64,000 nucleotides of DNA from Spirochaetia bacterium (GCA_963675665.1 OY776510.1:3488001-3552000); one strand, 5' to 3'; shown: positions 24,281-41,949, numbered from the stretch's first letter. Translations and numbers: made by a program. The notes: generated from the letters alone by a model not told the origin.

Positions 24281-24330
24281 GTTATATGCATGTTATACAT
24301 GAAGATAAATTGAAGTTGAGGCGAAATAGC
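24281..24330 (+). other. Candidate attI-like primary site / start of cassette 1
   Basis: GTTGAGGCGAAATAGC (24315) mirrors the end of cassette 1 (GCTACATCGCCTAAC); GTTATA repeats at 24281 and 24292. Confidence 0.55.
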
Positions 24331-24357
24331 GAAATAAATAAAAATTGAGTTGGTTTA

Positions 24358-24675
24358 ATGAAAAAATATACAGGACATATTCCACCTTGTGGGATCTTTT
24401 GTGGAAGCTGTCCAAAATATAAAATTGATTGTGAAGGAGCAGAACATCATTGTAGTAGAGAAAATTGGGAAATGATTTATACATGTTGTGTTGAAAAAAA
24501 GAAATATAAATTTTGTTATGAATGTTATGACTATCCATGTTCATATTTCCACAATTTTTCAAAATCATGGCTTACTATTACAGACTCTAAAGATAATATT
24601 ATGGACAATCAAGTATTTATTAAAAATGATGGTCCTGAATATTTTTTGAAGAAAATGAATGAGAGGCTCAAATAA
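24358..24675 (+). CDS. Cassette 1: Cys-rich DUF3795-like protein
   Basis: PPCGIFCGSCP ... CEG ... CC..KK..FCYEC.DYPC pattern. Confidence 0.8.
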   Translation: MKKYTGHIPPCGIFCGSCPKYKIDCEGAEHHCSRENWEMIYTCCVEKKKYKFCYECYDYPCSYFHNFSKSWLTITDSKDNIMDNQVFIKNDGPEYFLKKMNERLK

Positions 24676-24688
24676 TATATGCTACATC

Positions 24689-24786
24689 GCCTAACAAGCG
24701 AATATGAGGCTACGGTGACAAGCACCTTCGCCCAAATAAACCTCCCATTCGGTCGGTTTACTTCTCATATTCGCAGGACGTTAGAT
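24689..24786 (+). repeat. attC-like site 1 (98 bp)
   Basis: GCCTAAC-aa-GCGAATATGAG ... CTCATATTCGC-aggac-GTTAGAT. Confidence 0.88.
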
Positions 24787-24856
24787 TGCAATTTCTGTCC
24801 TGGTTGGGATTATTTAAGGAAGAGCCCGCCTTCCGTGGCGGGCATGGAGATAAGAA

Positions 24857-25921
24857 ATGAATAATAAAGTATTATATTATCCAAGTATAGAATTTTATGA
24901 TGTTAGTTGGGTTAAAGCATCTCTATGTATTTGGGACAAAGTTTATAGAATTGTGCCTTCAACTTATATTCCCAATGATTGTTTAGAAATAGAAACATTT
25001 ATTAATCATGGACTAGTTGATAATATTAGTATTGAACAAAATGATTTATCAGAAACAGCTGATAATTTTATCGATTTTATTGAAAAAATACCAGGATTAC
25101 CTGCTGGCATTGAAGGATATGAAAAGATCAATTTGCACAAAGAAAAAGTAGATGATCGTATTCTGCCCATATTAGAAGCGATATCAGACAAATTTGAATT
25201 AGAATCATGGATACCTCTATCAAGACCGATAGTAAACGCTTACATGCTTTTTTTTGCAGAAACTATTTCAAGAAGAAGAAAAATGCCAAAGATTACTGAT
25301 AATGTCGACATGTATACAATAATGCATTATTTTATGGCAGATGGTAATATTGATGAATCAATAGGTTCACATGAACATAAAGAATATAGCATTAATCTTG
25401 TATTAGAAAATATTATACCAGCAGATATTAATACCGTATCACCTGAGATTATACTTAATTTCAGAGAAGCAACAGAAGATATTAGAGACACTTTTAGAAA
25501 CTATGTATATAATTTGATTGATGAAATAAAGTCTATTGAAAGTGAATCTTATGCAAAAGAAATAATAACTGATAGTATTTCTGATATTTCTAAAAATAAT
25601 TCATCGCAAAAAAGAGTTATTAAAGAATTAGGTATGAATTTCACTACATCATTTCTTTCAATAGGTATACCTACTACAATTTCGGCAATTGCACTTTTTT
25701 CAAATACAAATAATATATTTTCCATAAACGAAATAATGGGTTCAGTTTTCATTGGAGCAGTTGCGTCTATTGCAGATACAGTCCGCTCAAGAAGAAAAGA
25801 TTGGAGTTCAGAGGAATCACTTTTTATGCATGAATTAGATAGAAGATTTGATACTTATAGGAATTTCAGGCCAACAACTAATCGACATTTTAATATTTTA
25901 GAAGAATATATTAATGATTAA
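24857..25921 (+). CDS. Cassette 2, gene 1: DUF6236-like protein with hydrophobic C-terminal segments
   Basis: N-terminal VLYYPSIEF...W.K...WDKVYRIVP pattern recalled from DUF6236; family not verified. Confidence 0.6.
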   Translation: MNNKVLYYPSIEFYDVSWVKASLCIWDKVYRIVPSTYIPNDCLEIETFINHGLVDNISIEQNDLSETADNFIDFIEKIPGLPAGIEGYEKINLHKEKVDDRILPILEAISDKFELESWIPLSRPIVNAYMLFFAETISRRRKMPKITDNVDMYTIMHYFMADGNIDESIGSHEHKEYSINLVLENIIPADINTVSPEIILNFREATEDIRDTFRNYVYNLIDEIKSIESESYAKEIITDSISDISKNNSSQKRVIKELGMNFTTSFLSIGIPTTISAIALFSNTNNIFSINEIMGSVFIGAVASIADTVRSRRKDWSSEESLFMHELDRRFDTYRNFRPTTNRHFNILEEYIND

Positions 25922-25952
25922 TAAAGTAAATAAAACTTAAAAGGAGCATAGC

Positions 25953-27515
25953 ATGTCAGAAAAACTAATTCTAGATGCATTAATTACAAGAGAAGATTTT
26001 GAAATCTCTGACGAATTAGATATACCCACAACAGATATGAAAGATACTTTGTCAATTCAAGATTTAGAATATAATTCTTTTTTCTATCGTGCATTAAGAA
26101 AGCCTGATTTTCAAAGAGAGACTAGTGATTGGACTATTGAAAAAACATTTCAATTTATTGAAAGTTTTATTAATGGAGATTTAATACCTGCAGTTATTTT
26201 GTGGAAAAATAGTTCAGGTTTAATATTTGTAATAGATGGTTCTCATCGAATCAGCGCTTTATCTTCATGGATAAATAACGACTATGGGGATGGTCGTTAT
26301 TCAATAGAATTTTATAATAATCAAATTTCAAACCAACAGAAAAAACAAGCCCAAACAGCAAGAACAATAATTGATGCTACAATAGGTTCATATGATTCAT
26401 ATAAAAATATTGATACAAATCTAAAAGAAGAAAATTTAACGAAATATAAAAAGGCGATGCAGTTAGGTTCTACAGCTATTCAAATTCAATGGGTAAAAGG
26501 TGATTCTAAAAAAGCAGAGGAGTCATTTTTTAAGATAAATGAAAAAGCTTCTCCAATTGATAATACTGAAAAGAAGATTATTAAAAATAGAAACAAACCA
26601 ATTGGGATAGCTGCAAGAGCAATCATGAGAAGTGGTAGTGGATATAGATATTGGTCCAAATTTGATAATAAAAGAAAAAATGAAGTTGAGCAGCTTGCAA
26701 AAGACATAAATGATATGCTTTTCTTACCAGAATATACAACCCCTATTAAAAGTTTAGATTTACCGATTGGCGGAAAGATCTTATCGAATAAAGGTTTAGC
26801 ACTAGTTCATGATACAATAATGATATGTAATAATTTAAATGAAAAAGAATTAGAGAGAATAGTGGATGACAATGATGGGATAAATACTGTTAAATACTTA
26901 AAACGAACAAAAAGACTTTTATTGAGGATTAATAGTCAACATCCAGGCTCTTTAGGATTACATCCAGTTATATATTTTTATTCAATACGTGGTGTTCATA
27001 AAGTAGCCTCATATTATGGAATACTTGATTTTATTAATTATATAGAAGAAACGAATAGGTACAACGATTTTATAGAAATACGCGAGAAGTTTGAAAGAAT
27101 CTTATTAGATTATGAATTCCTGATACAACAAATAGTACGTCATGATAGGCAATCTATAAATGGATATAAAAATATTAAGGAATATTATTCTTTAATTATG
27201 GACTATTTATTACAAGGTAAAGAGATTGAGGAAGTAATTAAAATGATTCTTGATACTAAGAAGTTTTCATATCTTTCTATTGCAATTACTAAAATGGAAG
27301 AAACTAAAGCTAAAAAATTCTCAAGAGATAAAAAATCGATAATTTTTATCAAGGAAGGTTTAAAAACAATTCCTAAATGTGGTATTTGTGGCGGGGCGTT
27401 ACATTCAAAATCGATATCAATTGATCATATAGAAAGAAAACAGGATGGTGGAATTTCAATGATAGATAATGGCCAATTATCACATCCATATTGTAATACA
27501 ACATATAAAAATTGA
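25953..27515 (+). CDS. Cassette 2, gene 2: DUF262 (ParB-like) plus HNH nuclease, GmrSD-like
   Basis: KPDFQRE..W, VIDGSHRISAL, FFKIN; C-terminal CGICGG..SIDHI..NGQLSHPYCN. Confidence 0.85.
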   Translation: MSEKLILDALITREDFEISDELDIPTTDMKDTLSIQDLEYNSFFYRALRKPDFQRETSDWTIEKTFQFIESFINGDLIPAVILWKNSSGLIFVIDGSHRISALSSWINNDYGDGRYSIEFYNNQISNQQKKQAQTARTIIDATIGSYDSYKNIDTNLKEENLTKYKKAMQLGSTAIQIQWVKGDSKKAEESFFKINEKASPIDNTEKKIIKNRNKPIGIAARAIMRSGSGYRYWSKFDNKRKNEVEQLAKDINDMLFLPEYTTPIKSLDLPIGGKILSNKGLALVHDTIMICNNLNEKELERIVDDNDGINTVKYLKRTKRLLLRINSQHPGSLGLHPVIYFYSIRGVHKVASYYGILDFINYIEETNRYNDFIEIREKFERILLDYEFLIQQIVRHDRQSINGYKNIKEYYSLIMDYLLQGKEIEEVIKMILDTKKFSYLSIAITKMEETKAKKFSRDKKSIIFIKEGLKTIPKCGICGGALHSKSISIDHIERKQDGGISMIDNGQLSHPYCNTTYKN

Positions 27516-27658
27516 TAATTAATAAAAAATGTATTGGAATCATGAATTATCTACATGATTAATTTGAAAAGGAGTTAAGCATATAGAAAATGATTATAGG
27601 GTCAAATACATCCATGTATTTGACAATTAAGTATTAAAGCAACCATGAAAGAAACGGC

Positions 27659-27806
27659 ATCTAACAAGCAAATATGTAGCTCCGGCCATTCGGCCTGCGC
27701 CCAAATTGAAGCTAACGGAGAAGCGGAGCAGGACAGTCGGGTTTGCTCATTGACAAAACACTCCTTTGGCGGCGCTTCAACTTTACATATTCGCGGAACG
27801 TTATGT
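27659..27806 (+). repeat. attC-like site 2 (148 bp)
   Basis: ATCTAAC-aa-GCAAATATGTA ... TACATATTCGC-ggaac-GTTATGT. Confidence 0.85.
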
Positions 27807-27955
27807 GCAATTACCCCGCCCCTTTTTTGGGAGAAGAGATTGTATATAGGCAAACTGGCATCCGTGCCAGTTTGGAAATGTATAAACACACATCGCATCG
27901 CATAAAAAGGTGAGATTATAGAATTAAAATTTATTAGTATGCATAACAAGGAAGC

Positions 27956-28837
27956 ATGATAATGGAATGGTCTGAAAGAATGAATATGGCAATCGATTAT
28001 ATTGAAGATAATATTAAAAATGAGATACTGATTTCAGAAGTAGCAAATATAGCCAATTGTTCATCATTTCATTTTCAGCGAATGTTTTATGCAATCATTG
28101 GGATTACGCCTGCTGAATATATCAGACGACGAAGATTGACTTTAGCAGCCTCTGATCTCGCTGCTGGGAATGAAAAAGTCATTGATATTGCTCTGAAATA
28201 TGGTTATGAATCACCAAATGCGTTTACTAGAGCATTCCGGAATATGCATGGTATTAATCCACGAGAAGTGCGCAGCTCAGAGGTTAAATTATCGGCATAT
28301 AATCGTGTTTCTTTTCATATCGAAATCAAAGGAGGAAATGATATGGATTATAAAATAGTCGAAAAACCGTCTTTTGAATTGGTAGGGAAGAGTAAAAACT
28401 TTACACATGAAAACTTTTTTAAAGAAGGCCCTAAATTCTGGAAAGAATACGTATGTACAGATGAATACCAAGAGCTTTGGAATTTGACAAATGGTAGATG
28501 GGGAGAGGTGACTGATTCCCCTCTGATGTCTGTCTATTTGCCTAGTGAAAAAAATGATGAATCATTTATTGATATTCTTGGTGTTGAAAAGTCAGATAGT
28601 TTTAATAATCATAAATTTGAACTATTTCAGATACCAGCTGCTACCTATGCAGAATTTAATTGTACTTATCAGACTTCTGCAAAAATGAATAAATTTATTT
28701 ACGGTGAATGGCTTCCTTCAACCGGTTATGAAAGGGATACTCAAAAAGCTGATATTGCAGCTTATTTCCCAGTAGCTTTTATGTCAACAAAAGGGATGGG
28801 GGTACGATGGTGGATACCAGTGGTTAAGAGAAAGTGA
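27956..28837 (+). CDS. Cassette 3: AraC-family regulator with GyrI-like effector domain
   Basis: MEWSERMN.AIDYIE, SSFHFQRMF, EYIRRRRLTLAA, KYGYESPNAFTRAF. Confidence 0.92.
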   Translation: MIMEWSERMNMAIDYIEDNIKNEILISEVANIANCSSFHFQRMFYAIIGITPAEYIRRRRLTLAASDLAAGNEKVIDIALKYGYESPNAFTRAFRNMHGINPREVRSSEVKLSAYNRVSFHIEIKGGNDMDYKIVEKPSFELVGKSKNFTHENFFKEGPKFWKEYVCTDEYQELWNLTNGRWGEVTDSPLMSVYLPSEKNDESFIDILGVEKSDSFNNHKFELFQIPAATYAEFNCTYQTSAKMNKFIYGEWLPSTGYERDTQKADIAAYFPVAFMSTKGMGVRWWIPVVKRK

Positions 28838-28909
28838 AAGAGATTTCAAGCAAAACATCGTGTTTTGCTTGAAGAATTCTCTTAAGAAAGACCGGGGCGG
28901 GGAAACTGC

Positions 28910-29001
28910 ATCTAACAAGGGTTACACGCTCCGGCCATTCGGCCTGCGGGCTGCGCCACATTCGGCTGCGCCGAACGTCGTGTAACCCTGGAACGTTATA
29001 C
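28910..29001 (+). repeat. attC-like site 3 (92 bp)
   Basis: ATCTAAC-a-AGGGTTACACG ... CGTGTAACCCT-ggaac-GTTATAC; nearly identical to site 4. Confidence 0.9.
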
Positions 29002-29079
29002 AAAATGTTCCCGCTAAGAGGAAGACGCCCGGACCTCCGGCCGACGGGCTAAAAGAGAGTTTAAGATTAAGGAATCAAG

Positions 29080-29859
29080 ATGGAAAAAGAGTTTACCGGA
29101 AATGAAATTGGATTAAATGGAGAAGCTCAAATAAAGATAGCTATCAAAACTATCTCTGATCTTGGTGGGAAAGCAGAAATGAAGGATTTATATTCTGCTT
29201 TAGAGAATGAAATGCGAGGAAAGAAACTCTCCAATCAAGGAAAGGCAAGTTTCAGATTTTTTGTGAATAAGGTCGCTGTAAAAGCAGGATTGATTTATCC
29301 GTATGACAAAAATAATCCGGGGTGGATGTTGACTCCGGCTGGTAAAGAATATCTGAAGAATGAAGAGATTAATGAAATAACAGTAAATACGGATACAAAT
29401 GAAGAAGAGGTAACTTTATCTAATTCGGCAAGAGGTTTAGCTTTTGAATTATACGCTCATGATTTTCTAAAGACATTATATCCAAGTTTTGTGTGGCATC
29501 ATCAGGGGCTTTATAAAACAACTGAAAGAGGTTTGGATTTTATAGGAGATAAACTTGGGGATCAAAATTCAGATGTTCGAACCATTGGTGTTCAGGTTAA
29601 GTTTCATAAAGAGAAAAATTCGCCAACTCAGATTGAATGGTTAAAATTTCTATCTGGTTGTTTTGCGCGCAGAGTAGATTTAGCAATATTTATCACAACA
29701 GGTAGATTGTCGAGTGCTCAATATCGAGAGGCGAGGGAATCAAATGTTATAGTTATTCAAGGAAAGGATGAGATAACAAGGATTGCAAAACAGAATAATT
29801 TAAAGAAGTTTGATTTATTTGGAAGTGAAGAGGAAGGAGAGGCTTCAGAAGAAGGATGA
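29080..29859 (+). CDS. Cassette 4: Mrr-like restriction endonuclease
   Basis: N-terminal winged helix (GWMLTPAGKEYL), then FE, GLD, GVQVK, IFITTG..S Mrr_cat motifs. Confidence 0.82.
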   Translation: MEKEFTGNEIGLNGEAQIKIAIKTISDLGGKAEMKDLYSALENEMRGKKLSNQGKASFRFFVNKVAVKAGLIYPYDKNNPGWMLTPAGKEYLKNEEINEITVNTDTNEEEVTLSNSARGLAFELYAHDFLKTLYPSFVWHHQGLYKTTERGLDFIGDKLGDQNSDVRTIGVQVKFHKEKNSPTQIEWLKFLSGCFARRVDLAIFITTGRLSSAQYREARESNVIVIQGKDEITRIAKQNNLKKFDLFGSEEEGEASEEG

Positions 29860-29921
29860 AGAGTTAAGATGTTCAAGCCTTGACTCCGCCGTGCGGCTTG
29901 AACGAAGAGCGGGAACACTTC

Positions 29922-30013
29922 GTATAACAAGGGTTACACGCTCCGGCAATTCGGCCTGCGGGCTGCGCCACATTCGGTTGCGCCGAACGTCGTGTAACCC
30001 TGGAACGTTAGCT
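29922..30013 (+). repeat. attC-like site 4 (92 bp)
   Basis: GTATAAC ... GTTAGCT; body differs from site 3 at two positions. Confidence 0.9.
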
Positions 30014-30105
30014 GAAATGCCCCGCTAAGAGGAGAACGCCCGGACCTCCGGCCGACGGGCTAAACTGAATAGGAAATTAATAATAAATTAAAATATGGAG
30101 TTAGT

Positions 30106-30954
30106 ATGAAGAAGTTATCACTAGTATTTGTATTTCTAATAGCTGTGAGTAGTTTATATGCAGAGGATATAGCTTTAATTGAAGATAATGTGCTTGATTT
30201 ATTTAATAGTTACAATCCTCAATATAAAACAATTGGTCCAAAAATCTTGAATATCCCTGAAGGGCAAATTGATTTTTACAAAATGAAAATAGATACTGAT
30301 GAAAGTGATCTAAAATTCTTAGTAATTAAAGATAAGTACATTATAGGGGTCTTGCAAAATGTTAATGGTGAAGATCAACTTTTAATTGATGCAAATGGTG
30401 ATAATTTATTAGATTATTATTCTCAAGAATTAACAATACCTTATTGGGTTGTAGCATCAGAGTGTAATAATCACAGTAATAATGAATATAATTTGGATAT
30501 TTATTTTGATGAAGCTATTGAGATTTTTAATGGAGAGGTGAACCCATATTCATCCGGTTTGCATTATCAGTTTACGCAAAAATTATTAGTTTCAGTTTCA
30601 GCACCGGAAACTCCTAATCGAGATATAATTTACGCTTTATATGATTATTACAATCATGGCGACCAATATCCATGGGTTGCTTTACAAATAATTAATTATA
30701 TAAGCAAGACTACTTACGATAGATATAAAAAGGATAATCTATTATTTTACTTACATACTATGGAATCCTTAATTAATTTTGGATATTCAGATAGAGCGAT
30801 ACCATTGATGGAAGAGTTAGTAAAGAAATACCCAGAATTTATTCCAGGGTTAGTGTATAGATGGCAATTAGAAAATGATGCTTCGAAAAAGGAGAAATAT
30901 TATAAAGATCTAAAAACCAATTATCCAAATCATTGGATAGTGAAATTAATTTAA
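30106..30954 (+). CDS. Cassette 5: exported hypothetical protein with TPR-like C-terminus
   Basis: Signal peptide MKKLSLVFVFLIAVSSLYA; GGAG RBS; helical repeats ..KYP.. / ..NYPNHW. Confidence 0.75.
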   Translation: MKKLSLVFVFLIAVSSLYAEDIALIEDNVLDLFNSYNPQYKTIGPKILNIPEGQIDFYKMKIDTDESDLKFLVIKDKYIIGVLQNVNGEDQLLIDANGDNLLDYYSQELTIPYWVVASECNNHSNNEYNLDIYFDEAIEIFNGEVNPYSSGLHYQFTQKLLVSVSAPETPNRDIIYALYDYYNHGDQYPWVALQIINYISKTTYDRYKKDNLLFYLHTMESLINFGYSDRAIPLMEELVKKYPEFIPGLVYRWQLENDASKKEKYYKDLKTNYPNHWIVKLI

Positions 30955-31034
30955 TGAAATATTATAGATTTGAAAACTTTGGTAGCCAGTCCTTGACTCC
31001 GTCGCACGGACTGGTTTAAGAGCGGGGACACTTC

Positions 31035-31342
31035 AGCTAACAAGGGAATATAAGCAGCGCCCATTCGGGCTTGGCCTTCGGCACATTTTTATTTTTCTGA
31101 ACATAGGCTTTATCATCGGCATTTAACACATGAAATGCAGTAGTCAACACCTTTGACACGGTTCTGGCGGAGACATTCGCTGATCGCTCATTCCAGAACC
31201 GCGCCAACCCTCGAAGACTCGGGACGGTTTCGCTACTGATTTCGTCGTTAAATGCACGGGATTTTTCAGTTTCGGGAAAATGATGGGTGTGATAGAATCA
31301 ATGAGAAAAATAAAAACGTCTTATATTCCCGGGGCGTTATGC
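31035..31342 (+). repeat. attC-like site 5, giant (308 bp), with nested inner site at 31121-31253
   Basis: AGCTAAC-aa-GGGAATATAAG ... CTTATATTCCC-ggggc-GTTATGC; TTTTTATTTTTCT/AGAAAAATAAAAA arm; inner ATTTAAC...GTTAAAT. Confidence 0.8.
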
Positions 31343-31576
31343 GACATTCTTGGAGGAAGAAGATAGAAACATTGTTTGGGATGATTTTGATAGTTTTTAG
31401 CATTTTACTCATTAAAAATTATTTTATTTCATATGGAAGGGCTATAAATAAATTCCGTGATATAATGTTATTTACAGTTTTAAATGCTGTAATTGAATTC
31501 TCAAGCAAGATCAACCAACTTGTTTTTAGGAACTTTACGCAGAAATTTAAGATTGAATTAAAAATAAAGGACGAAC

Positions 31577-32212
31577 ATGAATTCTACAGGCCAATATTAC
31601 TACAATGCCAGATGGTATGACCTAAATCTGGGTAGGTTTACCACAGAAGACCCGATAAGCGACGGCCTAAACTGGTACGCTTACGCTAATAATAATCCGC
31701 TGAGGTTTGTTGATCCGACCGGGTTAATAGATGTTGAATCTGATATAGTTGAAACGGAAACATACGTCGATGTTGATACTGATTCTCTCATGACTGGTGA
31801 TCCTATGGATATCTTTGATGATCCAGAAGTTGCAAAAGCTGATACTTTAGCTCAATTAGAAGATGTAGTAGATGAAACTGTAGAAATGATTTCCTTTACT
31901 ACCACTTTGGGTGGACTTTTGCCAGATGAAGAAGTTTCAACCACATTATTTTTTATTGGTGTAGGGACCGACCTTTATTCTACCCTTGTCTCTGAGGATA
32001 TGTCAGGGCTTGAATTAGGGATAAAGATAGGACTTGGTGTTGTTGGACTTATTTCAAGTCCTGCTGTTGCAGTGCCCTGTGTTTTAGCTACGATGTATGT
32101 AGGCTCGGCTTTTGATCATTTAGATGATGGACCTATTACAACAACTGATAATATGTCTGATTTATCTGATTTTCTTGGTGGTACTATAGATTGGGCAATG
32201 GATAATCAATAA
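31577..32212 (+). CDS. Cassette 6: Rhs-associated core plus C-terminal toxin-like domain
   Basis: TGQYYYNARWYD..LGRFTTEDP...NWYAYANNNPLRFVDPTGL. Confidence 0.88.
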   Translation: MNSTGQYYYNARWYDLNLGRFTTEDPISDGLNWYAYANNNPLRFVDPTGLIDVESDIVETETYVDVDTDSLMTGDPMDIFDDPEVAKADTLAQLEDVVDETVEMISFTTTLGGLLPDEEVSTTLFFIGVGTDLYSTLVSEDMSGLELGIKIGLGVVGLISSPAVAVPCVLATMYVGSAFDHLDDGPITTTDNMSDLSDFLGGTIDWAMDNQ

Positions 32213-32514
32213 TGAAAATACTTTTTACAATCTATTTTTGGATTTATTATACCGGTTTAAATATCAATAAAACCTTAGGAATACCAAAAAGACTATCAAG
32301 CTCTTATACTGGTGCAGGTCTTCTTACAGGATTATCTGTATTCATACCTATTTTTGTTTTGTTGGATTATTTCTTACCAATTAAATTAAGTAAATTACCT
32401 ATTTATTTTTGCATACTAATAATTATTATTATATTCGAAAAGATTTTAAAAAAGGTAAGTATAAATAAAAGTGGTGTCGAAGTAAAAGAAAAGATTGAAG
32501 ATTTAATAAATTAG
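32212..32514 (+). CDS. Cassette 6: small membrane protein, putative immunity protein
   Basis: TAATG overlap with the Rhs gene; hydrophobic segments. Confidence 0.55.
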   Translation: MKILFTIYFWIYYTGLNINKTLGIPKRLSSSYTGAGLLTGLSVFIPIFVLLDYFLPIKLSKLPIYFCILIIIIIFEKILKKVSINKSGVEVKEKIEDLIN

Positions 32515-32760
32515 ATCGTTTTTTAGTGTTTATAGATTTTATTTCTTTCATAATTATTTTTTCATGGATATTTCTAAGTTTTTATTTATGGCATTTTATA
32601 ATAATAAATTCTATTTGAAAACAAAATAGATTACCTTCCGCCGGAATAGGGCGTTGGAGTAGTCCCGGTGAAACCGGGCTACTCAACTATCCATTCCGGC
32701 TTCCAAGATAAATAGGGTGGAATTAAAGGTTGTATGATAAAATGTTAATAAAAGAACGTC

Positions 32761-32901
32761 GCATAACAACGGTTAAGCGGCTCCGGCCAGTCGGCCTGCG
32801 CCCAAATTGCCAGGAAGGGATTAGATAAACTTGAGGCAGTTAATAAGTAAGAGTTTATGTTCAGCTTTCCTGTCAACTTCGCTTAACCCGGAACGTTATC
32901 T
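32761..32901 (+). repeat. attC-like site 6 (141 bp)
   Basis: GCATAAC-aac-GGTTAAGCG ... CGCTTAACC-cggaac-GTTATCT. Confidence 0.85.
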
Positions 32902-32967
32902 GAAAGTTTTGGTTTTTGGTGATTCTATATAGAATAGTCATTCATGGCTATTCTTGTAAGATTTATC

Positions 32968-32996
32968 TTGACTAAGGTTAGCATGTAGGCTAACAT
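32968..32996 (+). promoter_or_regulatory. TA promoter with overlapping palindromic operator
   Basis: TTGACT-17bp-TAACAT; GTTAGC-N6-GCTAAC palindrome. Confidence 0.7.
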
Positions 32997-33002
32997 GAGA
33001 GT

Positions 33003-33365
33003 ATGAGTCGAAAAGTGATTTTCTATACAACAGATACAGGAAAATGCCTTGTAGAAGAATTTCTCAATAATCTTGAGGTAAAAGTTGTTAAGAAGATTGT
33101 TTGGACGTTGAAAATAATTGAGGAGATGGATTTAGTTCCAAAGACATATTTCAAGAAGTTGTAATCTACTGATGGAATATGGGAGGTCAGAATTAAAGTT
33201 GGAACAAATATATACCGGATCTTTAGTTTTTGGGATAAGAATAATTTGATTGTTTTAACCCATGGGATGATTAAGAAGTCTCAGAAAACACCAAAAAATG
33301 AGATCAAAATAGCAGAAAGTTATAAGAAGGAATATTTCAGGAGGAAAGAAAATGAACCTCAATGA
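33003..33365 (+). pseudogene. Cassette 7: RelE/HigB (Gp49-like) toxin with premature stop
   Basis: MSRKVIFY...YFKKL*STDGIWEVRI..YRIF..LTHGMIKKSQKTP; in-frame TAA at 33162. Confidence 0.88.
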
Positions 33366-33624
33366 TTATGTAGATAAAAGAATAAAGAATGAAGGAATCT
33401 CAAAAGAAGAGTTTTGGGATGGCTATGAAGATTATAAGATAGGGATATTCTTAAAAGAGGCAAGAGAAAAAAGTGGGTTAACGCAGGAAGAGTTAGCAAA
33501 TCGAATCAATACAACTAAAAGTGTAATCTCAAGGATGGAGAATCATTCTGAAGATATAAAATTATCAACTATTGAAAAAGTAGCAAAAGCCTTAGGAAAG
33601 AAGGTTAAAATCGCAATCGTTTGA
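33352..33624 (+). CDS. Cassette 7: HigA-like XRE antitoxin
   Basis: REKSGLTQEELA...KSVISRMEN...LSTIEKVAKALG. Confidence 0.9.
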   Translation: MNLNDYVDKRIKNEGISKEEFWDGYEDYKIGIFLKEAREKSGLTQEELANRINTTKSVISRMENHSEDIKLSTIEKVAKALGKKVKIAIV

Positions 33625-33684
33625 TTCTACACTAAAGCCCAAAAGACATCCTTGTCTTTTGGGGATCAAATCACCAAAACCTTC

Positions 33685-33779
33685 AGATAACAGGGGCTAT
33701 GTGCTTCGTCGCTATACGCTCCTCGGGCTACGCCACATACGGCTATCGCCGTACGTCACATAACCCCGGGACGTTAGAT
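33685..33779 (+). repeat. attC-like site 7 (95 bp)
   Basis: AGATAAC-a-GGGGCTATGTG ... CACATAACCCC-gggac-GTTAGAT. Confidence 0.9.
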
Positions 33780-33912
33780 GCAATGAGCCCGACAAGAGGA
33801 AGACGCCCGGACCTCCGGCCGACGGGCTAAGAGGTAAATATATGGAATATGAAAAATTATTTTTTGATAAATTAAGTCAAAGCTACAATAATTCTTCCTA
33901 TTAGGAGAGCGA

Positions 33913-34632
33913 ATGTGGTATGAGAAGACCTATATAAATGGTTCTATGAAGTGGATTAAAATATTTAATGATGAAAATCAAGGACTCAAAGTTGAGGATT
34001 GGGAATTAGATCGCGCCTGGGAGGCTGTAATAAAAGAAGATCCTGATTATATAACAATTGAATTGATGTATGATCAAGAATTTGCTTTCAGTTCTGCATT
34101 TTTCTTTCGTGCAAATATAAAGAATCCAAAACTTCAAACATTTTTTTGTCCAAAGTGTTTTAAATATTTAGATACTCATGAAGAAATGTTTTTTTTCAAT
34201 AATCCAATATTAAGGACAAATAAAATAATAAAATCAAAATTTGAAAATGTTAATTTTAAAAATAAGGCATCTGCCGAAATTCAAGCTTATATACTCAATG
34301 AAAATACTTTTAAAAATTGTGGATTATGGGGTATGCACGGTTGTACTTTGTTGTCTTATTTTATTGAAGAAGAGCATTATGATGTGATTTTTCAAAGTAA
34401 TAATGAAGGATTTGTATATCTATGGAAATATAAAGGAATTCCACAAAGATTTAAATTAGAATTAAATGAAAAGGAAAGCAGATTTGATGTAATAGATAAA
34501 AATGAGATTGTTTACTCTGAAAGCCTTGAACGTTTTTTCACAGCTAAAGGGTTTTATAATAGATATTATGAGATAGTAAGCTATTTAAATAATTTTAAAA
34601 AATTAAATTTAGAGGATAAGAACGATATATAA
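33913..34632 (+). CDS. Cassette 8: hypothetical protein (true start may be 33842, frameshifted)
   Basis: 239-aa ORF between two sites; an out-of-frame ATG with GAGGT RBS lies at 33842. Confidence 0.65.
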   Translation: MWYEKTYINGSMKWIKIFNDENQGLKVEDWELDRAWEAVIKEDPDYITIELMYDQEFAFSSAFFFRANIKNPKLQTFFCPKCFKYLDTHEEMFFFNNPILRTNKIIKSKFENVNFKNKASAEIQAYILNENTFKNCGLWGMHGCTLLSYFIEEEHYDVIFQSNNEGFVYLWKYKGIPQRFKLELNEKESRFDVIDKNEIVYSESLERFFTAKGFYNRYYEIVSYLNNFKKLNLEDKNDI

Positions 34633-34715
34633 GAACCGAAGTTTTGGTATTTTTTAAGATCAATGAAGAATCCAGACCTAACTCCGTTGAACGGTCTGGA
34701 TGTTGGGCTCAAAGC

Positions 34716-35016
34716 ACATAACAAGGGAATATAAGCAGCGCCCGTACGGGCTTGGCCTTCGGCACATTTTTATTTTTCTGAAGTGAGTGAAGATTATCGG
34801 AATTTAACAAGTCAAATGCAGTTGTCGCCGTCTATTGTCACGGTTTTAGCAGAGACGTTTCGCGCTGATCGCGCTACACTCTAAAACCGCGCCAATTCCT
34901 TTCGCTTCGCTCCAGGATCGAGGGCGCAACTGATTTAGTCGTTAAATGCACGGGATTTTTCAGTTTCGGGAAAATGATGGGTGTGATAGAATCAATGAGA
35001 AAAATAAAAACGTCTT
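34716..35016 (+). repeat. attC-like site 8 (giant type), truncated by IS3
   Basis: Homologous to 31035-31342; ends at AAAAACGTCTT where the IS begins; inner site at 34802-34947. Confidence 0.82.
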
Positions 35017-35046: not shown

Positions 35047-35955
35047 TTAGTTGAGTCCGACAACTCTGGCCGAATCTCTAACACTTTCATAATACATCAT
35101 CTCAAACTCTTTTGGGGGAATATTTCCAATCGGTTCAAGAATTCTTCGGTTGTTAAACCAGTCCACCCATTTCAGAGTTTCATATTCTACTTCATCTATA
35201 GATTTCCAGGGACCTTTTCTCCAGATCACCTCCGCTTTATATAAACCGTTTATTGTTTCCGCCATTGCATTATCATATGAATCTCCAACACTTCCGACAG
35301 AAGGTTCAATGCCTTCTTCAGCCAATCTCTCAGAATATTTGATAGACAGGTACTGGCTGCCGCGGTCGCTGTGATGAATCAATTTATCTTCCGGCGCTCG
35401 AGCAAAGATTGCCTGCTCCAAAGCATCCAGAGTTAGTTCGGCACTCATTGATCGCGATACGCGCCAACCGACGATCATCCGTGAAAACACATCTGTTACA
35501 AAGGCTACATATACAAATCCTCGCCAGGTTGCCACGTAGGTGAAATCTGCAATCCATAACTCGTTCGGCCGGGTAGATTTGAATTCCCGATTTACTAAAT
35601 CCAACGGCCTGTCTGTTTTCTTATCAGGAATCGTCGTTTTAATACCCTTGCCGCGAATAACTCCTCTAAGACCAAGATCCTTCATGAGTCGAGCTACAGT
35701 GCATCTTGCGACATTAAAACCCTCACGCTTCAGTTGTCTCCAGACTTTTCGGACTCCGTAAACTTTGTAGTTATCATCCCAGACACGCTTAACTTCCGAC
35801 TTCAATTTTTTATCAGAGTGATAGCGTGCAGGAGCCTTACTTGGATCTTTTTCTCTGGATTTCATTTCGTAATAAAAAGACGGAGCAATCGGTATTACTT
35901 TACAGATTGACTCGACTCCATAATCTTCTCTATTTTTATCAATGAAATTAATCAT
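35047..35955 (-). CDS. IS3 OrfB transposase (DDE)
   Basis: [37 protein letters not shown]. Confidence 0.95.
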
Positions 35956-36275
35956 TTCCTCTGTGGGCGGTCGAGCTCCGCCTGTGCGAAATATGCTGAA
36001 GCCTTTCTGAGTATCTCGTTAGCTTTTCTTAATTCCCTGACTTCTCGCTCCAGTTCTTTAATTCTGGTTTTCTCATCAATAGTCAGACCTTCTCGCTTTT
36101 CTGAATCCATTTCCGCTTGACGAACCCATCGGCGCAATGTTTCCGGGGTGCAGCCAATCTTGTTTGCTATTGATTCTATGGCTCCCCATTGGGAGCCGTG
36201 CTATTCAGTAGTCTCAAATACCAACCGTACTGAACGTTCTTTTACTTCTTTTGAATACCGGGTTCTTTTGTCCAT
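35952..36275 (-). pseudogene. IS3 OrfA with premature TAG
   Basis: [48 protein letters not shown]; stop at 36201-36203. Confidence 0.85.
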
Positions 36276-36693: not shown

Positions 36694-36722
36694 TTGATAA
36701 AACTTAAAAGGTGTTGTACAAT
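36694..36722 (+). promoter_or_regulatory. TA promoter
   Basis: TTGATA-17bp-TACAAT overlapping TGTACA/TGTACG motifs; ATG 7 nt downstream. Confidence 0.6.
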
Positions 36723-36728
36723 GTACGT

Positions 36729-37346: not shown

Positions 37347-37367
37347 AGAAGAAAGCCGTAATACTTC

Positions 37368-37462
37368 AGATAACAGGGGCTATGTGCTTCGTCGCTATGC
37401 GCTCCTCGGGCTGCGCCACATACGGCATTCGCCGTACGTCGTATATCCGCGGAACGTTAGAC
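37368..37462 (+). repeat. attC-like site 9 (95 bp, arms mismatched)
   Basis: AGATAAC-a-GGGGCTATGTG ... CGTATATCCGC-ggaac-GTTAGAC; body like site 7. Confidence 0.82.
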
Positions 37463-37496
37463 GAAAGATATAAAGGTCGACGGGCTTGAATGAGAT

Positions 37497-38306
37497 ATGA
37501 ATATTGAAAAGGTTTTAAGGAATTATATAAAAATAGAGAATAGAGTTATCCATTCGGGTGAACAGTTTGTTATAATTACATTATGTTTAATACTGGTATT
37601 TTCATGTAACAAAAAGATAGAAAGCAGAAATAATGAATTATTAAAAGTATTGTTTATAGGAAATAGCTACACATTCAATAATAACCTTCCCGATCAAGTT
37701 AAAAAAAATATTTACTGATCAAAACAAGGCTATTTCTATTGAGATAAAATCATTTACTCCCGGTGGAGCAAGACTCCAAGATCATCTAAATTCTATTTTC
37801 ACTTTGGATACAATAAGAAATGGAAATTGGGATATAATAATTATACAAGGGCATAGCTTGGGCCTCTAAATAATCCTATTGGTTTTAAGGATGCTGCTTT
37901 AACTCTCATAAAAATCGCTAAAGATAGTGGTGCTGAAGTCTATTTATTTGAAACATGGTCTCGTGCTTTGGGTGAACCAGAGTACAGTGAAGAATGGTCA
38001 GGGCGAAATCATGCTGCAATGCAGAAACTCATCAGCAAAAAATATACTGATATTGCAATAGTCACTGATGCAATAGTTATTCCGATAGGGAGAATATGGC
38101 AAAGACTAAGGATAGAGATCCCAAAAATTGAATTATATTCAACAGACGGTTCTCATCCTACACCCTGTGGAAGTTATTTGGCGGCTTGTGTTATTTATAA
38201 ATATCTGTTCGATGAAGATCCTACTGACATTAAATACTATCCAAATGGAATAAAGAAATCTGATGCTAAGAAATTACGGGCTGCTGCTGAAAATATTATT
38301 CTTTAA
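37497..38306 (+). pseudogene. Cassette 10: SGNH-hydrolase-like protein, frameshifted
   Basis: VLFIGNSYT, WDIIIIQ, LFETWSR and DGSHPT..GSYLAA spread over different frames. Confidence 0.8.
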
Positions 38307-38559
38307 CGAAAAAGAAATAAGTTTGGAGAATATTATGACCGAGATACTATATACGATTAATATTTAATTTCCTTAGAGATGGAAAAAACTTATTGTCCAG
38401 GCATGTGAAAAAAATATGAAGATGAAAATGATTCATTGTAGCTGGTTGAAGAGTGATGGTTTTAAGCAGATAGTCAGTTATAAAAAGGGGTGCTATAATA
38501 ATCAAAGAAACCAGACCTTGACATCGCCGTGCGGTCTGTTTGAAGAGCCAAAACTCTTG

Positions 38560-38636
38560 CTATAACAGGGGCTATGTGCTCAGCCCATTCGGCCTTCGGG
38601 CTGCGCCGAACGTCGTGTAACCCTGGAACGATAGGA
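38560..38636 (+). repeat. attC-like site 10 (chimeric; right core has lost TT)
   Basis: Left arm of site-7 type, right arm of site-3 type; ends GGAACG-ATAGGAA instead of GTTATAGGAA. Confidence 0.78.
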
Positions 38637-38660
38637 ACTAGTTTTTAAGAGATTATTACG

Positions 38661-39155
38661 ATGAAAGAGAAGTACCAAATCCAAATAGCCGATAAGAATG
38701 ACCAAGAATTTCTTTATGAGATGCTTTACCAATCAATTTATGTAGAGCCAGATTCACCGAAACCTGATAGACAAATAATTGATATTCCAGAAATATCAAA
38801 ATATGTCGCAAACTGGGGAAAGCAAGGAGATTACGCTTTAATTGCTTTAGATGAAAATGGAACTAAAATAGGTGCAGTTTGGCTCCGATACTTTGATGTA
38901 AATAACAAGGGATATGGATTCATTAACGATCAGATACCTGAGATAGGTATCGCTGTAGAAGAAAAGAGCCGTGGGAATGGTATTGGGTCATTCTTATTAA
39001 ATGAAATATTGAAAAGAACGAAAAATGAAATAGAATCAATTTCATTAAGTGTTCAACCGAATAATCCAGCAATGGATTTATATTCTCGATTCGGTTTCTA
39101 TGAATGTGGAAAAGAAGGGGACTCTGTAATAATGAGATATGATAACGAGGCATGA
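38661..39155 (+). CDS. Cassette 11: GNAT acetyltransferase
   Basis: GAVWLR, GYGF..PEIGIAV, RGNGIG, SLSVQPNNPAMDLY.RFGF. Confidence 0.92.
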   Translation: MKEKYQIQIADKNDQEFLYEMLYQSIYVEPDSPKPDRQIIDIPEISKYVANWGKQGDYALIALDENGTKIGAVWLRYFDVNNKGYGFINDQIPEIGIAVEEKSRGNGIGSFLLNEILKRTKNEIESISLSVQPNNPAMDLYSRFGFYECGKEGDSVIMRYDNEA

Positions 39156-39165
39156 AAACTACTTC

Positions 39166-39281
39166 CTATAACAGTGAGTATATGCTACGTTCGGCTATCG
39201 CGCCTCACTTGGGCTGCGCCACATTTTTTCTTTTTCCTGCTCCGCTTCGCCCGCTTATCGGGAAAAGAAAAAACGTTATAT
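39166..39281 (+). repeat. attC-like site 11 (right inner arm deleted)
   Basis: CTATAAC ... GGGCTGCGCCACA TTTTTTCTTTT/AAAAGAAAAAA c GTTATAT; no partner for the left arm. Confidence 0.72.
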
Positions 39282-39302
39282 GCAATGCATAACGAGAAAG
39301 AA

Positions 39303-39800
39303 ATGATTGTATTAGAAAAATTTGAAAAAGATAACATTCCCCAATTACTATCTTGGCTTGAAGACACGGATGCAAAATTCCTTTTACAGTTTGCTGGACC
39401 CATATATTTATTCCCATTGAATGAAAAACAACTCATGGAAACTTTGGATTCAAAAGATTATTTATTGCTTCGGGCAATCGATACCAAAGCCGGGAATATA
39501 ATCGGTCATTGCCAATTTATGAGAGTTGATAAAAATAAACAACAAGCATCCATTGGTAGAATCCTTATTAATCCTAATTTCAGAGGGAAAGGATTTGGAG
39601 TACAACTCATAAATGAAATGAAAATCTTTGCCAAAGATAAATTAAATCTATTGAAGATTGATTTACGTGTTTTTGATTTCAACACTGCAGCTTTACATTG
39701 TTATTCTAAAGCTGGGTTTGTTAAAACCTCTGTACATGAAAACCATATTCCTGAGTTCAATGAAACTTGGAAAATTATTACAATGGAATGTTCTCTCTGA
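39303..39800 (+). CDS. Cassette 12: GNAT (RimJ-like) acetyltransferase
   Basis: RILINPNFRGKGFG, LRVFDFNTAALHCY.KAGF; real start MIVLEKF. Confidence 0.9.
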   Translation: MIVLEKFEKDNIPQLLSWLEDTDAKFLLQFAGPIYLFPLNEKQLMETLDSKDYLLLRAIDTKAGNIIGHCQFMRVDKNKQQASIGRILINPNFRGKGFGVQLINEMKIFAKDKLNLLKIDLRVFDFNTAALHCYSKAGFVKTSVHENHIPEFNETWKIITMECSL

Positions 39801-39824
39801 CCCTCTATTCTCGTTGGTCAATGA

Positions 39825-39971
39825 ATCTAACAAGCGAATATGCGGTTCCGATTCGCTCCACTCAAATTGCTTCTTTGATAATCTCTGATAAAAGTATGCT
39901 ATACTTTTCCCAGATATTATTAAGCTCTCAAGTGGCCGAAGCACCTTCGCATATTCCGCAGAACGTTATAT
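39825..39971 (+). repeat. attC-like site 12 (147 bp)
   Basis: ATCTAAC-aa-GCGAATATGCG ... CGCATATTCCGC-agaac-GTTATAT. Confidence 0.85.
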
Positions 39972-40080
39972 GACATATTCTTGAGATGGATATAATATAC
40001 AGAAAATAAAAGAGGAGTACTTAATGTCTACAATATTATTTGATTTCTTTAGATAAACATAAAAATATAAGGAGTCAATA

Positions 40081-40827
40081 TTGTCGTATTTTAATTTTCA
40101 AGGAAAGAAAATATTTTATTCAGTTAAAGGAGAAGGTCCTCTTCTGATAGTTTTACCAGGTAACACAGCTACATCTGCTGCACATGAGCATGAGTTAAAT
40201 TATTTTTCAGATAAGTATTGCACTGTTTCCCTAGATTTTCTGGGAACTGGAAAATCAGACAGAATGAAGCAATGGGATAGCGGTTGGTGGGAAGCCTGTA
40301 GTAACCAAGTTAAAGCATTAGTTGAGCATCTTAATTATAAAGAGGCGATTCTTCTTGGCATAAGTGGCGGTGCTATTATAGCAATTTCTGCCGCTATAAA
40401 TCATTCTGAATATGTTAAAGCAGTTGTTGCAGATAGCTTTTCATTGCATTTTACGGAAGAAATGTATAAAAACAATGTCTTAAATGAAAGATCTAATTTA
40501 TCTGAAGAACAACAAATGTTCTGGTCATCAATGCATGGTTCAGATTGGAAAGATGTTATAACTGCTGATACAGAAATGATTGGAATGGTTGTTAAGGAAG
40601 GAGGATCTTGTATCAAGAGCCAACCAGAAAAGATAAAATGTCCTGTTTTGCTGACATATTCAGAAGAAGATAGTTTTCTTCCAAATGTAAAAGAAATTGC
40701 TGCAGATTTAGAAAAGAAGATTAGCAATTGTGAGATTAAAATATTTTCAAATGGAGATCATCCTCTAATTTGGACAAATCCTACGGATTTTTTTCAATCC
40801 GTTGATAGATTTCTATTAAAAATATAA
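40081..40827 (+). CDS. Cassette 13: alpha/beta hydrolase
   Basis: LDFLGTGKS, GISGG nucleophile elbow, ED, GDH. Confidence 0.9.
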   Translation: MSYFNFQGKKIFYSVKGEGPLLIVLPGNTATSAAHEHELNYFSDKYCTVSLDFLGTGKSDRMKQWDSGWWEACSNQVKALVEHLNYKEAILLGISGGAIIAISAAINHSEYVKAVVADSFSLHFTEEMYKNNVLNERSNLSEEQQMFWSSMHGSDWKDVITADTEMIGMVVKEGGSCIKSQPEKIKCPVLLTYSEEDSFLPNVKEIAADLEKKISNCEIKIFSNGDHPLIWTNPTDFFQSVDRFLLKI

Positions 40828-40879
40828 AGAAAATTTGTGGGCTATTTCGATGGCCCGCATTCAATAACAAGAATAAGTC

Positions 40880-41051
40880 ACATAACAGCGTGGATCAAGG
40901 GCCTTGCCGTCCCTGGCAAGGATAAAGAAAAGTCGACAAAACGCACACATTGTAATAATTTACTATTATGAAGCTTTTTGATTGGGATGAAAAGAAGAAT
41001 TCAGAATTAAGAAAAACGCGTGATATAAACGGAAGATTGGTTGAATCAAGC
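40880..41051 (+). pseudogene. Truncated site 13 fused to a remnant BrnT-like toxin cassette
   Basis: ACATAAC at 40880 without right half; ATG 40968 gives MKLFDWDEKKNSELRKTRDI, then deleted. Confidence 0.62.
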
Positions 41052-41145
41052 AGATAACAGGGGCTATTTGCATCGTCGCTATGCGCTCCTCGGGCTGTGC
41101 CACATACGGTTGCGCCGTACGTCACATAACCTCGGAACGTTATGC
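41052..41145 (+). repeat. attC-like site 14 (94 bp)
   Basis: AGATAAC-a-GGGGCTATTTG ... CACATAACCTC-ggaac-GTTATGC; site-7 family. Confidence 0.87.
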
Positions 41146-41197
41146 GAAATCTCGAACCTAAAAAAAGAAGATGCTTGCCATCCTTTGCAAGCAAAGA

Positions 41198-41230
41198 TTG
41201 ACGGAGTGTAGTAATTACTATATAATTACT
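41198..41230 (+). promoter_or_regulatory. mazEF promoter/operator
   Basis: TTGACG-17bp-TATAAT with AGTAATTA...TAATTACT palindrome. Confidence 0.8.
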
Positions 41231-41246
41231 TTAGTTGAGGTATAAT

Positions 41247-41495
41247 ATGTTAATTTCAGTGGTTCCTATAGGCAATTCAAAAGGAATTCGGATTCCTAAG
41301 AGCATTTTGCAGCAATTAAATATTGAAGAAAAAGTCGAATTGGAAGTTCATAATACAGAAATATTGATACGGCCAATTAAGAAAAAGCCGAGAGAAGGAT
41401 GGTCCGAAGAGTTTATGAAAATGCATCAAAATGGTGATGATTCTTCACTTGTGGACAATTTAACAGGTCAGGATGATTTTGAATGGGAATGGTAA
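41247..41495 (+). CDS. mazE: Cassette 15: AbrB/MazE antitoxin
   Basis: IGNSKGIRIPK, PREGW, FEWEW. Confidence 0.9.
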   Translation: MLISVVPIGNSKGIRIPKSILQQLNIEEKVELEVHNTEILIRPIKKKPREGWSEEFMKMHQNGDDSSLVDNLTGQDDFEWEW

Positions 41496-41812
41496 TCCAT
41501 CAATACGAAGTGTATTTGATAAACTTGGATCCGACTGTTGGTCATGAAATAAAAAAGACAAGACCTTGTTTAGTTATTTCACCAAACGAGATGAATGAAT
41601 CGATCCAGACTATTATAATCGCTCCAATGACAACGAAATCACATCCATATCCAACTCGAGTACCAATTAAATTTGAAAAGAAAGATGGATGGATTGTTTT
41701 AGATCAATTAAGAACAATTGATAGAAAGAGATTAATTAAAAAAATTGGAAAGATAAATAAAAAAGAAGTTGAACTCGTCAAGAATGTACTCCAGGAAATG
41801 TTAATAGATTAA
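41483..41812 (+). CDS. mazF: Cassette 15: PemK/MazF toxin
   Basis: LDPTVGHEIKKTRPCLVISP, APMTT, LDQLRTIDRKRL. Confidence 0.94.
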   Translation: MGMVIHQYEVYLINLDPTVGHEIKKTRPCLVISPNEMNESIQTIIIAPMTTKSHPYPTRVPIKFEKKDGWIVLDQLRTIDRKRLIKKIGKINKKEVELVKNVLQEMLID

Positions 41813-41861
41813 AGCCAATCAACATCCTTGTTGCTTGGCTTTGAAGAAGGTTTGTGACTAC

Positions 41862-41949
41862 GCATAAAACAGCAGAATATGAGGCTCCAGCCATTCTGCT
41901 GTCGCCTAAATCGACTATGTCGACTTCGCATATTCGCGGAGTGTTATAT
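41862..41949 (+). repeat. attC-like site 15 (left core has AA insertion)
   Basis: GCATAAAAC-a-GCAGAATATGAG ... CGCATATTCGC-ggagt-GTTATAT. Confidence 0.75.

Follow-up and report, generated by a model that had tools for sequence, protein, structure and literature searches.

Strand choice in integrons is explained by extrahelical bases that are read by a domain specific to IntI. The R box of the integron site is described, in the available portions of two accounts, as 7 bp only, and its variable bases need not pair in the array (PMC5027507, PMC5371416). In CTX-type integration, according to the accessible part of its description, a single strand folds with an unpaired central region and one strand pair is exchanged (PMC5357621). 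Here we describe an array of 15 cassettes in a Spirochaetia bacterium (GCA_963675665.1 OY776510.1:3488001-3552000), which lies downstream of, and on the same strand as, the gene for an Xer-like tyrosine recombinase. Positions are counted in this window, the whole stretch of 64,000 nucleotides, unless a genome position is named. The first 14 to 27 bases of each cassette are complementary to the cassette's own far end, as the present analysis confirmed, and the pairing is interrupted at one constant position, +11.

Cognate pairing of cassette starts and ends

The cassettes are separated by hairpin sites which read, in order, R'' (ending in TAAC), a short spacer, L'', a loop, L', a longer spacer and R' (beginning with GTTA). 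Thirteen sites of the window fit the imperfect palindrome R''-L''...L'-R' with the conserved AAC and GTT that is expected of integron sites, and their spacers are unequal, at 1-5 nt on one side and 5-8 nt on the other, 3' side. The L stem is perfect and uninterrupted, with 7 to 11 bp beside the spacers and no extra base, in eight of the 13, and in four others it carries mismatches, not an extra base; the extrahelical bases in or beside the L box that characterise integron sites were not found in the sites of the window. A generic genome scan with regular expressions and hairpins was too noisy for finding such sites, and a narrower motif scan and covariance models were used in its place. The cargo is typical of integrons, as it comprises PIN/Phd and MazEF pairs, two GNATs, a Cass2-type regulator, and GmrSD/HNH and Mrr-like nucleases.

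We took the G of GTT (+1) as the start of a cassette and the C of AAC as its end, and aligned each start with the reverse complement of an end by anchored extension (match +1, mismatch -1, gap -2); a pair x/y denotes the start base and the base in the reverse-complemented end. Both boundaries are present in 13 of the 15 cassettes. Left out were c9 (end at 37374), which lost its start to an IS3-type insertion, and c14 (end at 41058), which lost its start to a deletion. A first-pass annotation of the window had claimed that a cassette's start is complementary to its own end far beyond the 7-bp core, and the scores bear this out. Cognate pairs reached a mean of 13.2 (n = 13) against 5.56 for 197 non-cognate pairs (sd 2.2, maximum 12), and 11 of the 13 lay above the 95th percentile of the non-cognates. 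When pairings were shuffled, the observed mean from +1 (13.23, against 6.01) was reached in 0 of 10000 shuffles. The median aligned length of the cognate pairs is 22 bases, and complementarity of the start to its own R'' extends over and past the 7-bp core in 11 of the 13 cassettes.

All cassettes lie on the plus strand, and the five pairs quoted in the first-pass annotation are present in the sequence exactly. Two of them form stems in which +11, A/G, is the sole mismatch: c6 (31336..32767; arms 31336-31351 and 32752-32767; score 14) over 16 bases, and c7, which carries an HTH antitoxin-like pair (32895..33691; arms 32895-32913 or longer and 33673-33691; score 18), over 19 bases. The stem of c4, with an Mrr-like open reading frame (ORF) as cargo (28995..29928; arms 28995-29015 and 29908-29928; score 17), has 21 bases with A/G at both +8 and +11; that of c3, an AraC/Cass2 regulator cassette (27800..28916; arms 27800-27822 and 28894-28916; score 15), has 23 bases with A/G at +11 and a core that is non-cognate at +5 and +6; and that of c13, with an alpha/beta hydrolase (39965..40886; arms 39965-39983 and 40868-40886; score 16), has 19 bases with A/G at +6 and A/T at +11.

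Six further cassettes, for which stems had likewise been claimed, all score at least 10. In c2 (a DUF6236-like ORF and a GmrSD/HNH ORF; 24780..27665; arms 24780-24806 and 27640-27665; score 16) the stem of 26-27 bases includes one extra T at +8, with A/C at +10 and A/G at +11, and in c5 (30007..31041; arms 30007-30026 and 31021-31041; score 16) the 20-21 bases contain a one-base indel and A/G at +11. The 22-base stem of c8 (33773..34722; arms 33773-33794 and 34701-34722; score 12) has A/T at +10 and at +11 and a non-cognate core that is the reciprocal of that of c3. Several mismatches, with A/T at +11, interrupt the stem of about 27 bases in c12 (GNAT; 39275..39831; arms 39275-39301 and 39804-39831; score 13). 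The other GNAT cassette, c11 (38630..39172; arms 38630-38645 and 39155-39172; score 10), begins with GAT, two bases of its GTT being lost, and shows C/G at +11 followed by seven paired bases. In c1 (DUF3795 ORF; 24315..24695, with the start arm from 24315 and the end arm to 24695; score 10) the start reads GTTGAGGCGAAATAGC and the reverse-complemented end GTT-AGGCGATGTAGC, with an extra G in the core, A/T at +10 and A/G at +11. The claim fell short in c15 (MazE/MazF pair; 41139..41869, with the start arm from 41139 and the end arm to 41869), whose score of 9 is under the 95th percentile; two extra bases stand in its end core, and by eye +11 is A/G and +17 to +21 are paired. The indels that had been claimed for c1, c2, c11 and c15 are real in the pair alignments. 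The second low score belongs to c10 (37456..38566), which is degraded, as had been noted, with broken ORFs, no convincing stem and a score of 6 in the non-cognate range.

The same pairing is found in related arrays. One genome per species was scanned, giving 584 stretches with relatives of the recombinase, of which 80 loci were kept; covariance models built from the window sites gave 60 matches in 24 of these loci, all on the strand of the recombinase. Many related loci end just after the recombinase gene and therefore cannot show an array. Consecutive sites defined 36 cassettes (35 distinct) at 14 loci, which according to their records belong to Bacillota, Atribacterota, Bacteroidota, Spirochaetota, Nitrospirota, a Thermodesulfobacterium and an Altarchaeum. 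The alignment of starts with ends in homologous arrays, which had been set as a check on the claim, gave a cognate mean of 11.11 against 5.44 for shuffled pairings (0 of 10000) in the 35 cassettes, 23 of which scored 10 or more. A second array of this type in the same genome, on the minus strand at about 3.905-3.92 Mb, has stems of 21 to 27 bases.

The agreement might in principle reflect an extended consensus common to all sites, with nothing specific to a cassette, as +8 to +12 are semi-conserved: across the distinct sites of the window, the second array and the related loci, taken irrespective of pairing, the start has G at +8 in 57 of 69 and A at +11 in 65 of 69. The test was therefore redone from +13 outward only, where composition is even. 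Cognate pairs still scored 5.62 against 1.42 in the window and 3.69 against 0.88 at the related loci, and in neither did any of 10000 shuffles reach the observed mean. The excess from +13 onward indicates that the complementarity is cassette-specific, and we regard a mere extended consensus as extremely improbable.

Classical cassettes do not share these long stems. The same genome contains a canonical integron (G000:C1:4417888-4526315), which comprises an IntI gene (392 bits) and, in divergent orientation to it, 51 attC sites that occupy about 106 kb of the minus strand, from genome position 4,524,336 to 4,417,888; one 490-base cassette is repeated in it at least six times, behind different sites. 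From this integron we sampled 48 cassettes, 44 of them distinct, leaving out one site whose GTT could not be read and one pair that spans a gap of 29 kb. Their starts agree with their ends from +1 (9.50 against 5.27 shuffled, 0 of 10000; median aligned length 12), and from +13 the 44 cassettes show no cognate signal (0.50 against 0.58; 7528 of 10000 shuffles reach it). The class 1 sample comprised 12 cassettes from three plasmid records among the matches listed, OXA-10 being left out since its site is fused with the cassette that follows; counted from +1, the perfect runs measured 12, 8, 6, 9, 13, 12, 12, 8, 8, 4, 12 and 13 bases, with nothing cognate from +13 in the 12 (0.67 against 0.49; 2817 of 10000). 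Three further canonical arrays, from other genomes of the same class, supplied 34 cassettes (32 distinct), in which pairing typically covers 7 to 8 bases and the 32 again show no cognate signal from +13 (0.69 against 0.65; 4375 of 10000). Equally long stems in classical cassettes had been named beforehand as an outcome that would speak against the claim; none of the samples of 44, 12 and 32 cassettes was cognate from +13. Classical cassettes thus pair past the textbook 7 bp, to about +8 to +13, and the stem past +12, together with the wobble at +11, is particular to the Xer-type arrays.

The mismatch at +11

Position 11 had been reported as mismatched in every pair, mostly with A at the start opposite C. 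This is correct for all 11 window cassettes scoring 10 or more (A/G in seven, A/T in three and C/G in one): the seven ungapped pairs have A/G four times and A/T three times, and of the four gapped pairs c1, c2 and c5 have A/G and c11 has C/G. Twenty-three related-locus cassettes score 10 or more, and their ungapped pairs have a mismatch at +11 in 19 of 19 cases (A/G in 18), at +10 in 8 of 20, at +8 and +9 in 0 of 20, and at +12 and +13 in 0 of 19; the paired positions past +11 employ all four base pairs. In the second array of the genome, three of four consecutive-site pairs have A/G at +11. The A of the start is the most conserved position after GTTA, and G occupies +11 of the reverse-complemented end in 52 of 70 sites of the window, second array and related loci. 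An A/G pair places A opposite C on the top strand and T opposite G, a wobble pair, on the bottom strand. Integrons recombine the folded bottom strand and resolve the product by replication; the mismatch types seen here favour pairing of that strand. By eye, the window sequence holds no counterpart of this mismatch at the same distance in the L arm.

Two explanations had been offered for the mismatch, a structural landmark that replaces the extrahelical base or a footprint of how cassettes are built. The conservation of A and G across several phyla, with +12 and +13 always paired, fits a selected landmark better, and from these sequence comparisons the wobble, which stands one helical turn away from the crossover in the strand where cleavage is expected, is best taken for an asymmetric mark under selection. 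That it replaces the extrahelical base is less secure. An extra base is indeed absent from eight of the 13 L stems of the window, but the canonical attC sites of the genome have the extra L-box base (read by eye), and one extra partnerless A also stands at +10 to +12 of the start in 18 of the 29 canonical cassettes scoring 10 or more; an irregularity of the +11 type can therefore coexist with extrahelical bases. The start has A at +10 in 40 of the 44 canonical cassettes and in 25 of the 32 from the three further canonical arrays. In the class 1 sample, +11 is paired in all six cassettes whose run reaches +12.

Inferred crossover position and predicted folding of the excised circle

We propose, as the reading that we hold to be somewhat probable, that the array is an integron-like platform run by an Xer-like tyrosine recombinase, in which the arms of a cassette are the two halves of the outer stem of its own hairpin, split by a crossover near G|TT and rejoined on excision. 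The closed circle would be the complete form of the cassette, with a site that folds as a long imperfect hairpin. Going inward, this hairpin would consist of an outer R stem (about 14 to 27 bp), unpaired spacers of unequal length (1-5 against 5-8 nt), the L stem and a variable loop. The crossover would fall within the R stem, at or just left of GTTA, and integration would therefore split the stem. Its 3' half (TTA, about six semi-conserved bases and a cassette-specific run) would become the first bases of the integrated cassette and its 5' half would remain at the far end, so that the apparent terminal inverted repeats would be these two halves. The semi-conserved part, +2 to +12, is as long as an 11-bp Xer binding arm and may correspond to it; past +12 there is no consensus and the sequence differs per cassette. 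The additional cognate pairing may allow the site to fold far more stably in a single-stranded excised circle than in the hybrid sites of the array, which would favour the circle as the substrate for integration. The +11 pair sits at a distance of 10 bases from the crossover, in the strand where cleavage is expected. It is a T·G wobble when the bottom strand folds and an A·C mismatch when the top strand does; it may bias folding toward the bottom strand and could serve the recombinase as a mark of strand or orientation.

The position of the crossover is suggested by the cores. In c2, c4, c5, c6 and c7, the bases at +5 to +7 fit the cassette's own end and fail to fit the upstream site. This places the exchange point left of +5, in keeping with G|TT, the position known from integrons. 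One contig, from another strain of the organism, joins the c6 site to a c2-like cassette from GTTA onward, the c2-like start being without the extra T, and this indicates that the start arm travels with its cassette. Contigs from other strains contain only part of the cassettes. Several apparent joints in public contigs were rejected as paralogous copies elsewhere in the genome.

We also predicted the folding of each end, site and start joined as in a circle, using DNA parameters. For 11 cassettes, the predicted bottom-strand energy is -35.7 kcal/mol in the circle against -27.9 kcal/mol in the hybrid array site, a mean gain of -7.9 kcal/mol that reaches -9.6 to -16.6 kcal/mol for c2 to c7; in c4 the circle-form bottom strand is predicted to form an unbroken R stem of 22 bp. 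The hybrid R arms of the array match on average at 6.5 of the first 12 positions and 3.2 of the next 12. The earlier suggestion that the stem extends the site only in the excised circle is supported on geometric grounds: given a crossover at or just left of GTTA, the arms are adjacent only there and lengthen the R stem of the cassette's own site. In the circle form the bottom strand is predicted to exceed the top in stability by 3.7 kcal/mol. When the R stem is taken by itself, the prediction favours the bottom strand in 26 of 34 Xer-type cassettes, with a difference of about 1 kcal/mol, and shows no such bias for the R stems of the canonical array.

The stems are predicted to be strong on their own (R stem alone, mean -14 to -16 kcal/mol), and complementarity that closes a circle could in principle also act across about 1 kb. 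This leads to a second reading of the arms, as a panhandle: the two arms of one cassette would pair in cis across the ORF in single-stranded array DNA, bringing the crossover points together and promoting or regulating excision. Excision needs two junctions, however, and pairing across the ORF yields a cognate R box at just one of them; it would also have to compete with the local L-stem hairpins and bear a large loop penalty. We consider a panhandle unlikely.

A third reading treats the arms as inherited and not selected, cassettes having been built on a pre-formed site module that is contiguous in the circle, in the order 3' hairpin, end arm, site, start arm and 5' leader. Arms do recur with their adjoining leader and 3' hairpin as families around different cargo; c2-type arms are found at five places, and c4-type arms at c4, c5 and c8. 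Unselected arms should decay independently, yet +12 and +13 are paired throughout the 19 ungapped related-locus pairs across phyla, and two related stems in the second array of the genome differ by matched changes on both arms. Nor could copying one arm from the other yield the invariant asymmetry at +11. Such a construction fossil is, in our judgement, an improbable account of the arms.

Several points weigh against the proposal of a stem split at the crossover and rejoined in the circle. The core at +5 to +7 is non-cognate although the extension is cognate in four of the 11 cassettes (c3, c8, c12 and c13), c3 and c8 holding each other's cores, a combination that is not expected from one fixed crossover at G|TT. 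Since stem families are common to several cassettes, part of the agreement could come from shared descent and not from selection on each cassette. At the related loci 12 of the 35 cassettes score below 10, which may reflect missed or decayed sites. The energies are predictions for naked DNA, and the wobble adds only about 1 kcal/mol. Finally, the four public runs are available as contigs that break at repeated sites, and neither circle junctions nor excision joints are visible in such data. A non-cognate core with a cognate extension was also seen at two related loci (L013:11071 and L021:4649).

We tentatively raise a wider possibility, which we would at present rather doubt than assert. A base that never forms a Watson-Crick pair, the bottom-strand T 9 to 10 bases from the crossover, may be a previously unrecognised determinant of attC-type sites, common to the Xer-type system (T·G wobble at +11) and to canonical integrons of the same class (unpaired start-side A at +10); together with it, the cassette-specific stem would make the excised circle a privileged substrate and give directionality without the IntI domain.

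Two other conserved elements adjoin the arms. A leader of about 37 bases with a small GC-rich hairpin follows the start arm at 29016-29052 (c4), 30027-30062 (c5) and 33795-33830 (c8), and several cassettes have, just before the end arm, a hairpin whose loop is conserved (29866-29900, 30985-31020, 34670-34700 and 38510-38545). The same hairpin also precedes canonical attC sites, for example at G000:C1:4504800, and may be a terminator or another shared cassette element. A search of 26 kb against Rfam found no family for the sites or the conserved leader, and returned only the frameshift element of an IS3-family insertion and one weak chance match.

The recombinase, nested sites and comparison with known systems

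The recombinase at the head of the array (23201..24265, plus strand; 354 amino acids) matches Phage_integrase (143 bits), SAM_4 and, at residues 15-48, HARP (27.5 bits, cut-off 25) in Pfam, and the XerA-type model NF040815 of NCBIfam at 220 bits, which is at its cut-off; the closest solved structures are likewise of XerA type. Against the integron-integrase model TIGR02249 it scored 190.8 bits, under the cut-off of 265. In a whole-genome search with this profile the recombinase covered only positions 4-169 and 235-314, about 24 residues standing in place of the 65 unmatched positions 170-234, and the IntI-specific insertion is therefore absent; accordingly, the additional domain around patch III that is expected of an integron integrase was not found. 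The same search identified the true IntI of the genome (the 392-bit gene of the canonical integron), about 1 Mb away. Judged by these profile matches, the array recombinase is Xer-like, with a partly HARP-like N terminus and without the IntI-specific insertion. A link between the HARP-like N-terminal domain and the long stem was considered but could not be established: among 13 other recombinases HARP is matched in 4, and weakly, and the recombinase of a related locus (L083), which has no N-terminal extension, keeps a stem with A/G at +11.

The two cassette systems of the genome meet at several places. A search with an nhmmer profile of the canonical attC sites found a complete canonical attC in the loop of the c5 Xer-type site (31124..31250, plus strand; E 2e-27) and a second in the c8 site (34805-34944; E 8e-27). 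The converse nesting is seen on the minus strand at G000:C1:4440408-4438864 and 4479442-4478566, where canonical cassettes consist of the right half of an Xer-type site, an Xer-type cassette, the left half of the site and a canonical attC. The cargo of c7 is 76% identical over 763 bases to a stretch within the canonical integron. The two systems have cassettes in common by way of these nested sites, and either recombinase could move such a cassette in its circular form.

Other features of the region include an IS3-family insertion with rve and HTH_21 domains (35047..36250, minus strand), which interrupts the c8 site and removed the start of c9, and whose ALIL frameshift pseudoknot lies at 35881-35997 (106 bits, Rfam). 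An IS66-family transposase gene follows just past the last array site (42109-43662, minus strand). In c6, a 211-residue ORF is followed by an overlapping ORF of 100 residues (31577-32514), and Pfam matches neither of them; the first ORF resembles by eye, in its N-terminal part, an RHS-type core end, which would suggest a toxin tip and immunity pair. Cumulative GC skew peaks at about 52000-62000 (genome about 3.54-3.55 Mb), which places the array 10-20 kb from the likely replication terminus; the bottom strand would then be the leading-strand template.

If the proposal is true, a widespread cassette system without the IntI domain and without extrahelical bases would rely instead on a long stem formed only in the circle and one invariant wobble pair, and would represent a second solution to recombining folded single strands in the right orientation. 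The stem past +12 and the +11 pair are precise and cheap targets for mutation, and the combination of stem and wobble suggests extending site finders to arrays that current integron tools miss. The pairing of classical cassettes to +8 to +13 bears on the cloning and modelling of attC sites. Our literature search, whose coverage did not extend to the 59-base-element papers of the 1990s, found no report of cognate pairing past the core or of a wobble in attC, and none of a recombinase of this kind in an integron-like system.

Compared with transposons, the cassettes are likewise units bounded by inverted repeats of 15 to 25 bases; unlike transposon ends, these repeats vary from one cassette to another and run on into a shared hairpin recombination site, the individual units have no transposase associated with them, and their boundary falls at an integron-type crossover. 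The array resembles Xer/dif systems in its Xer-like recombinase and in the +2 to +12 arm, which matches the 11-bp Xer half-site in the part of the description available (PMC5357621). A dif-type site is a duplex in which two 11-bp arms flank a central region of 6-8 bp, with one site per replicon; the 5-8 nt 3' spacer would fit such a central region, but the array sites are hairpins with unequal spacers and stand in arrays. As in a CTX-type attP, on the same partial account, a folded strand with an unpaired centre would permit the exchange of one strand pair only. Unlike both dif and the CTX attP, the system has a dedicated recombinase beside an array of many sites, with cargo arranged as cassettes, and a cassette-specific stem past the arm and a mismatch within it do not figure in that portion of the description of either (PMC5357621). 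With classical integrons, the array has in common a tandem arrangement of mostly promoterless cargo that includes toxin-antitoxin pairs, GNATs and a Cass2 protein, imperfect hairpin sites with AAC...GTT boxes, and cassettes whose first bases lie in their own R' box and are complementary to the far-end R''. It differs from them in a recombinase that lacks the IntI insertion and is co-oriented with the cassettes, in L stems without an extra base in eight of 13 sites and spacers of 1-5 against 5-8 nt, in cognate pairing that reaches +14 to +27 whereas that of classical cassettes reaches +8 to +13, and in a fixed non-Watson-Crick pair at +11.

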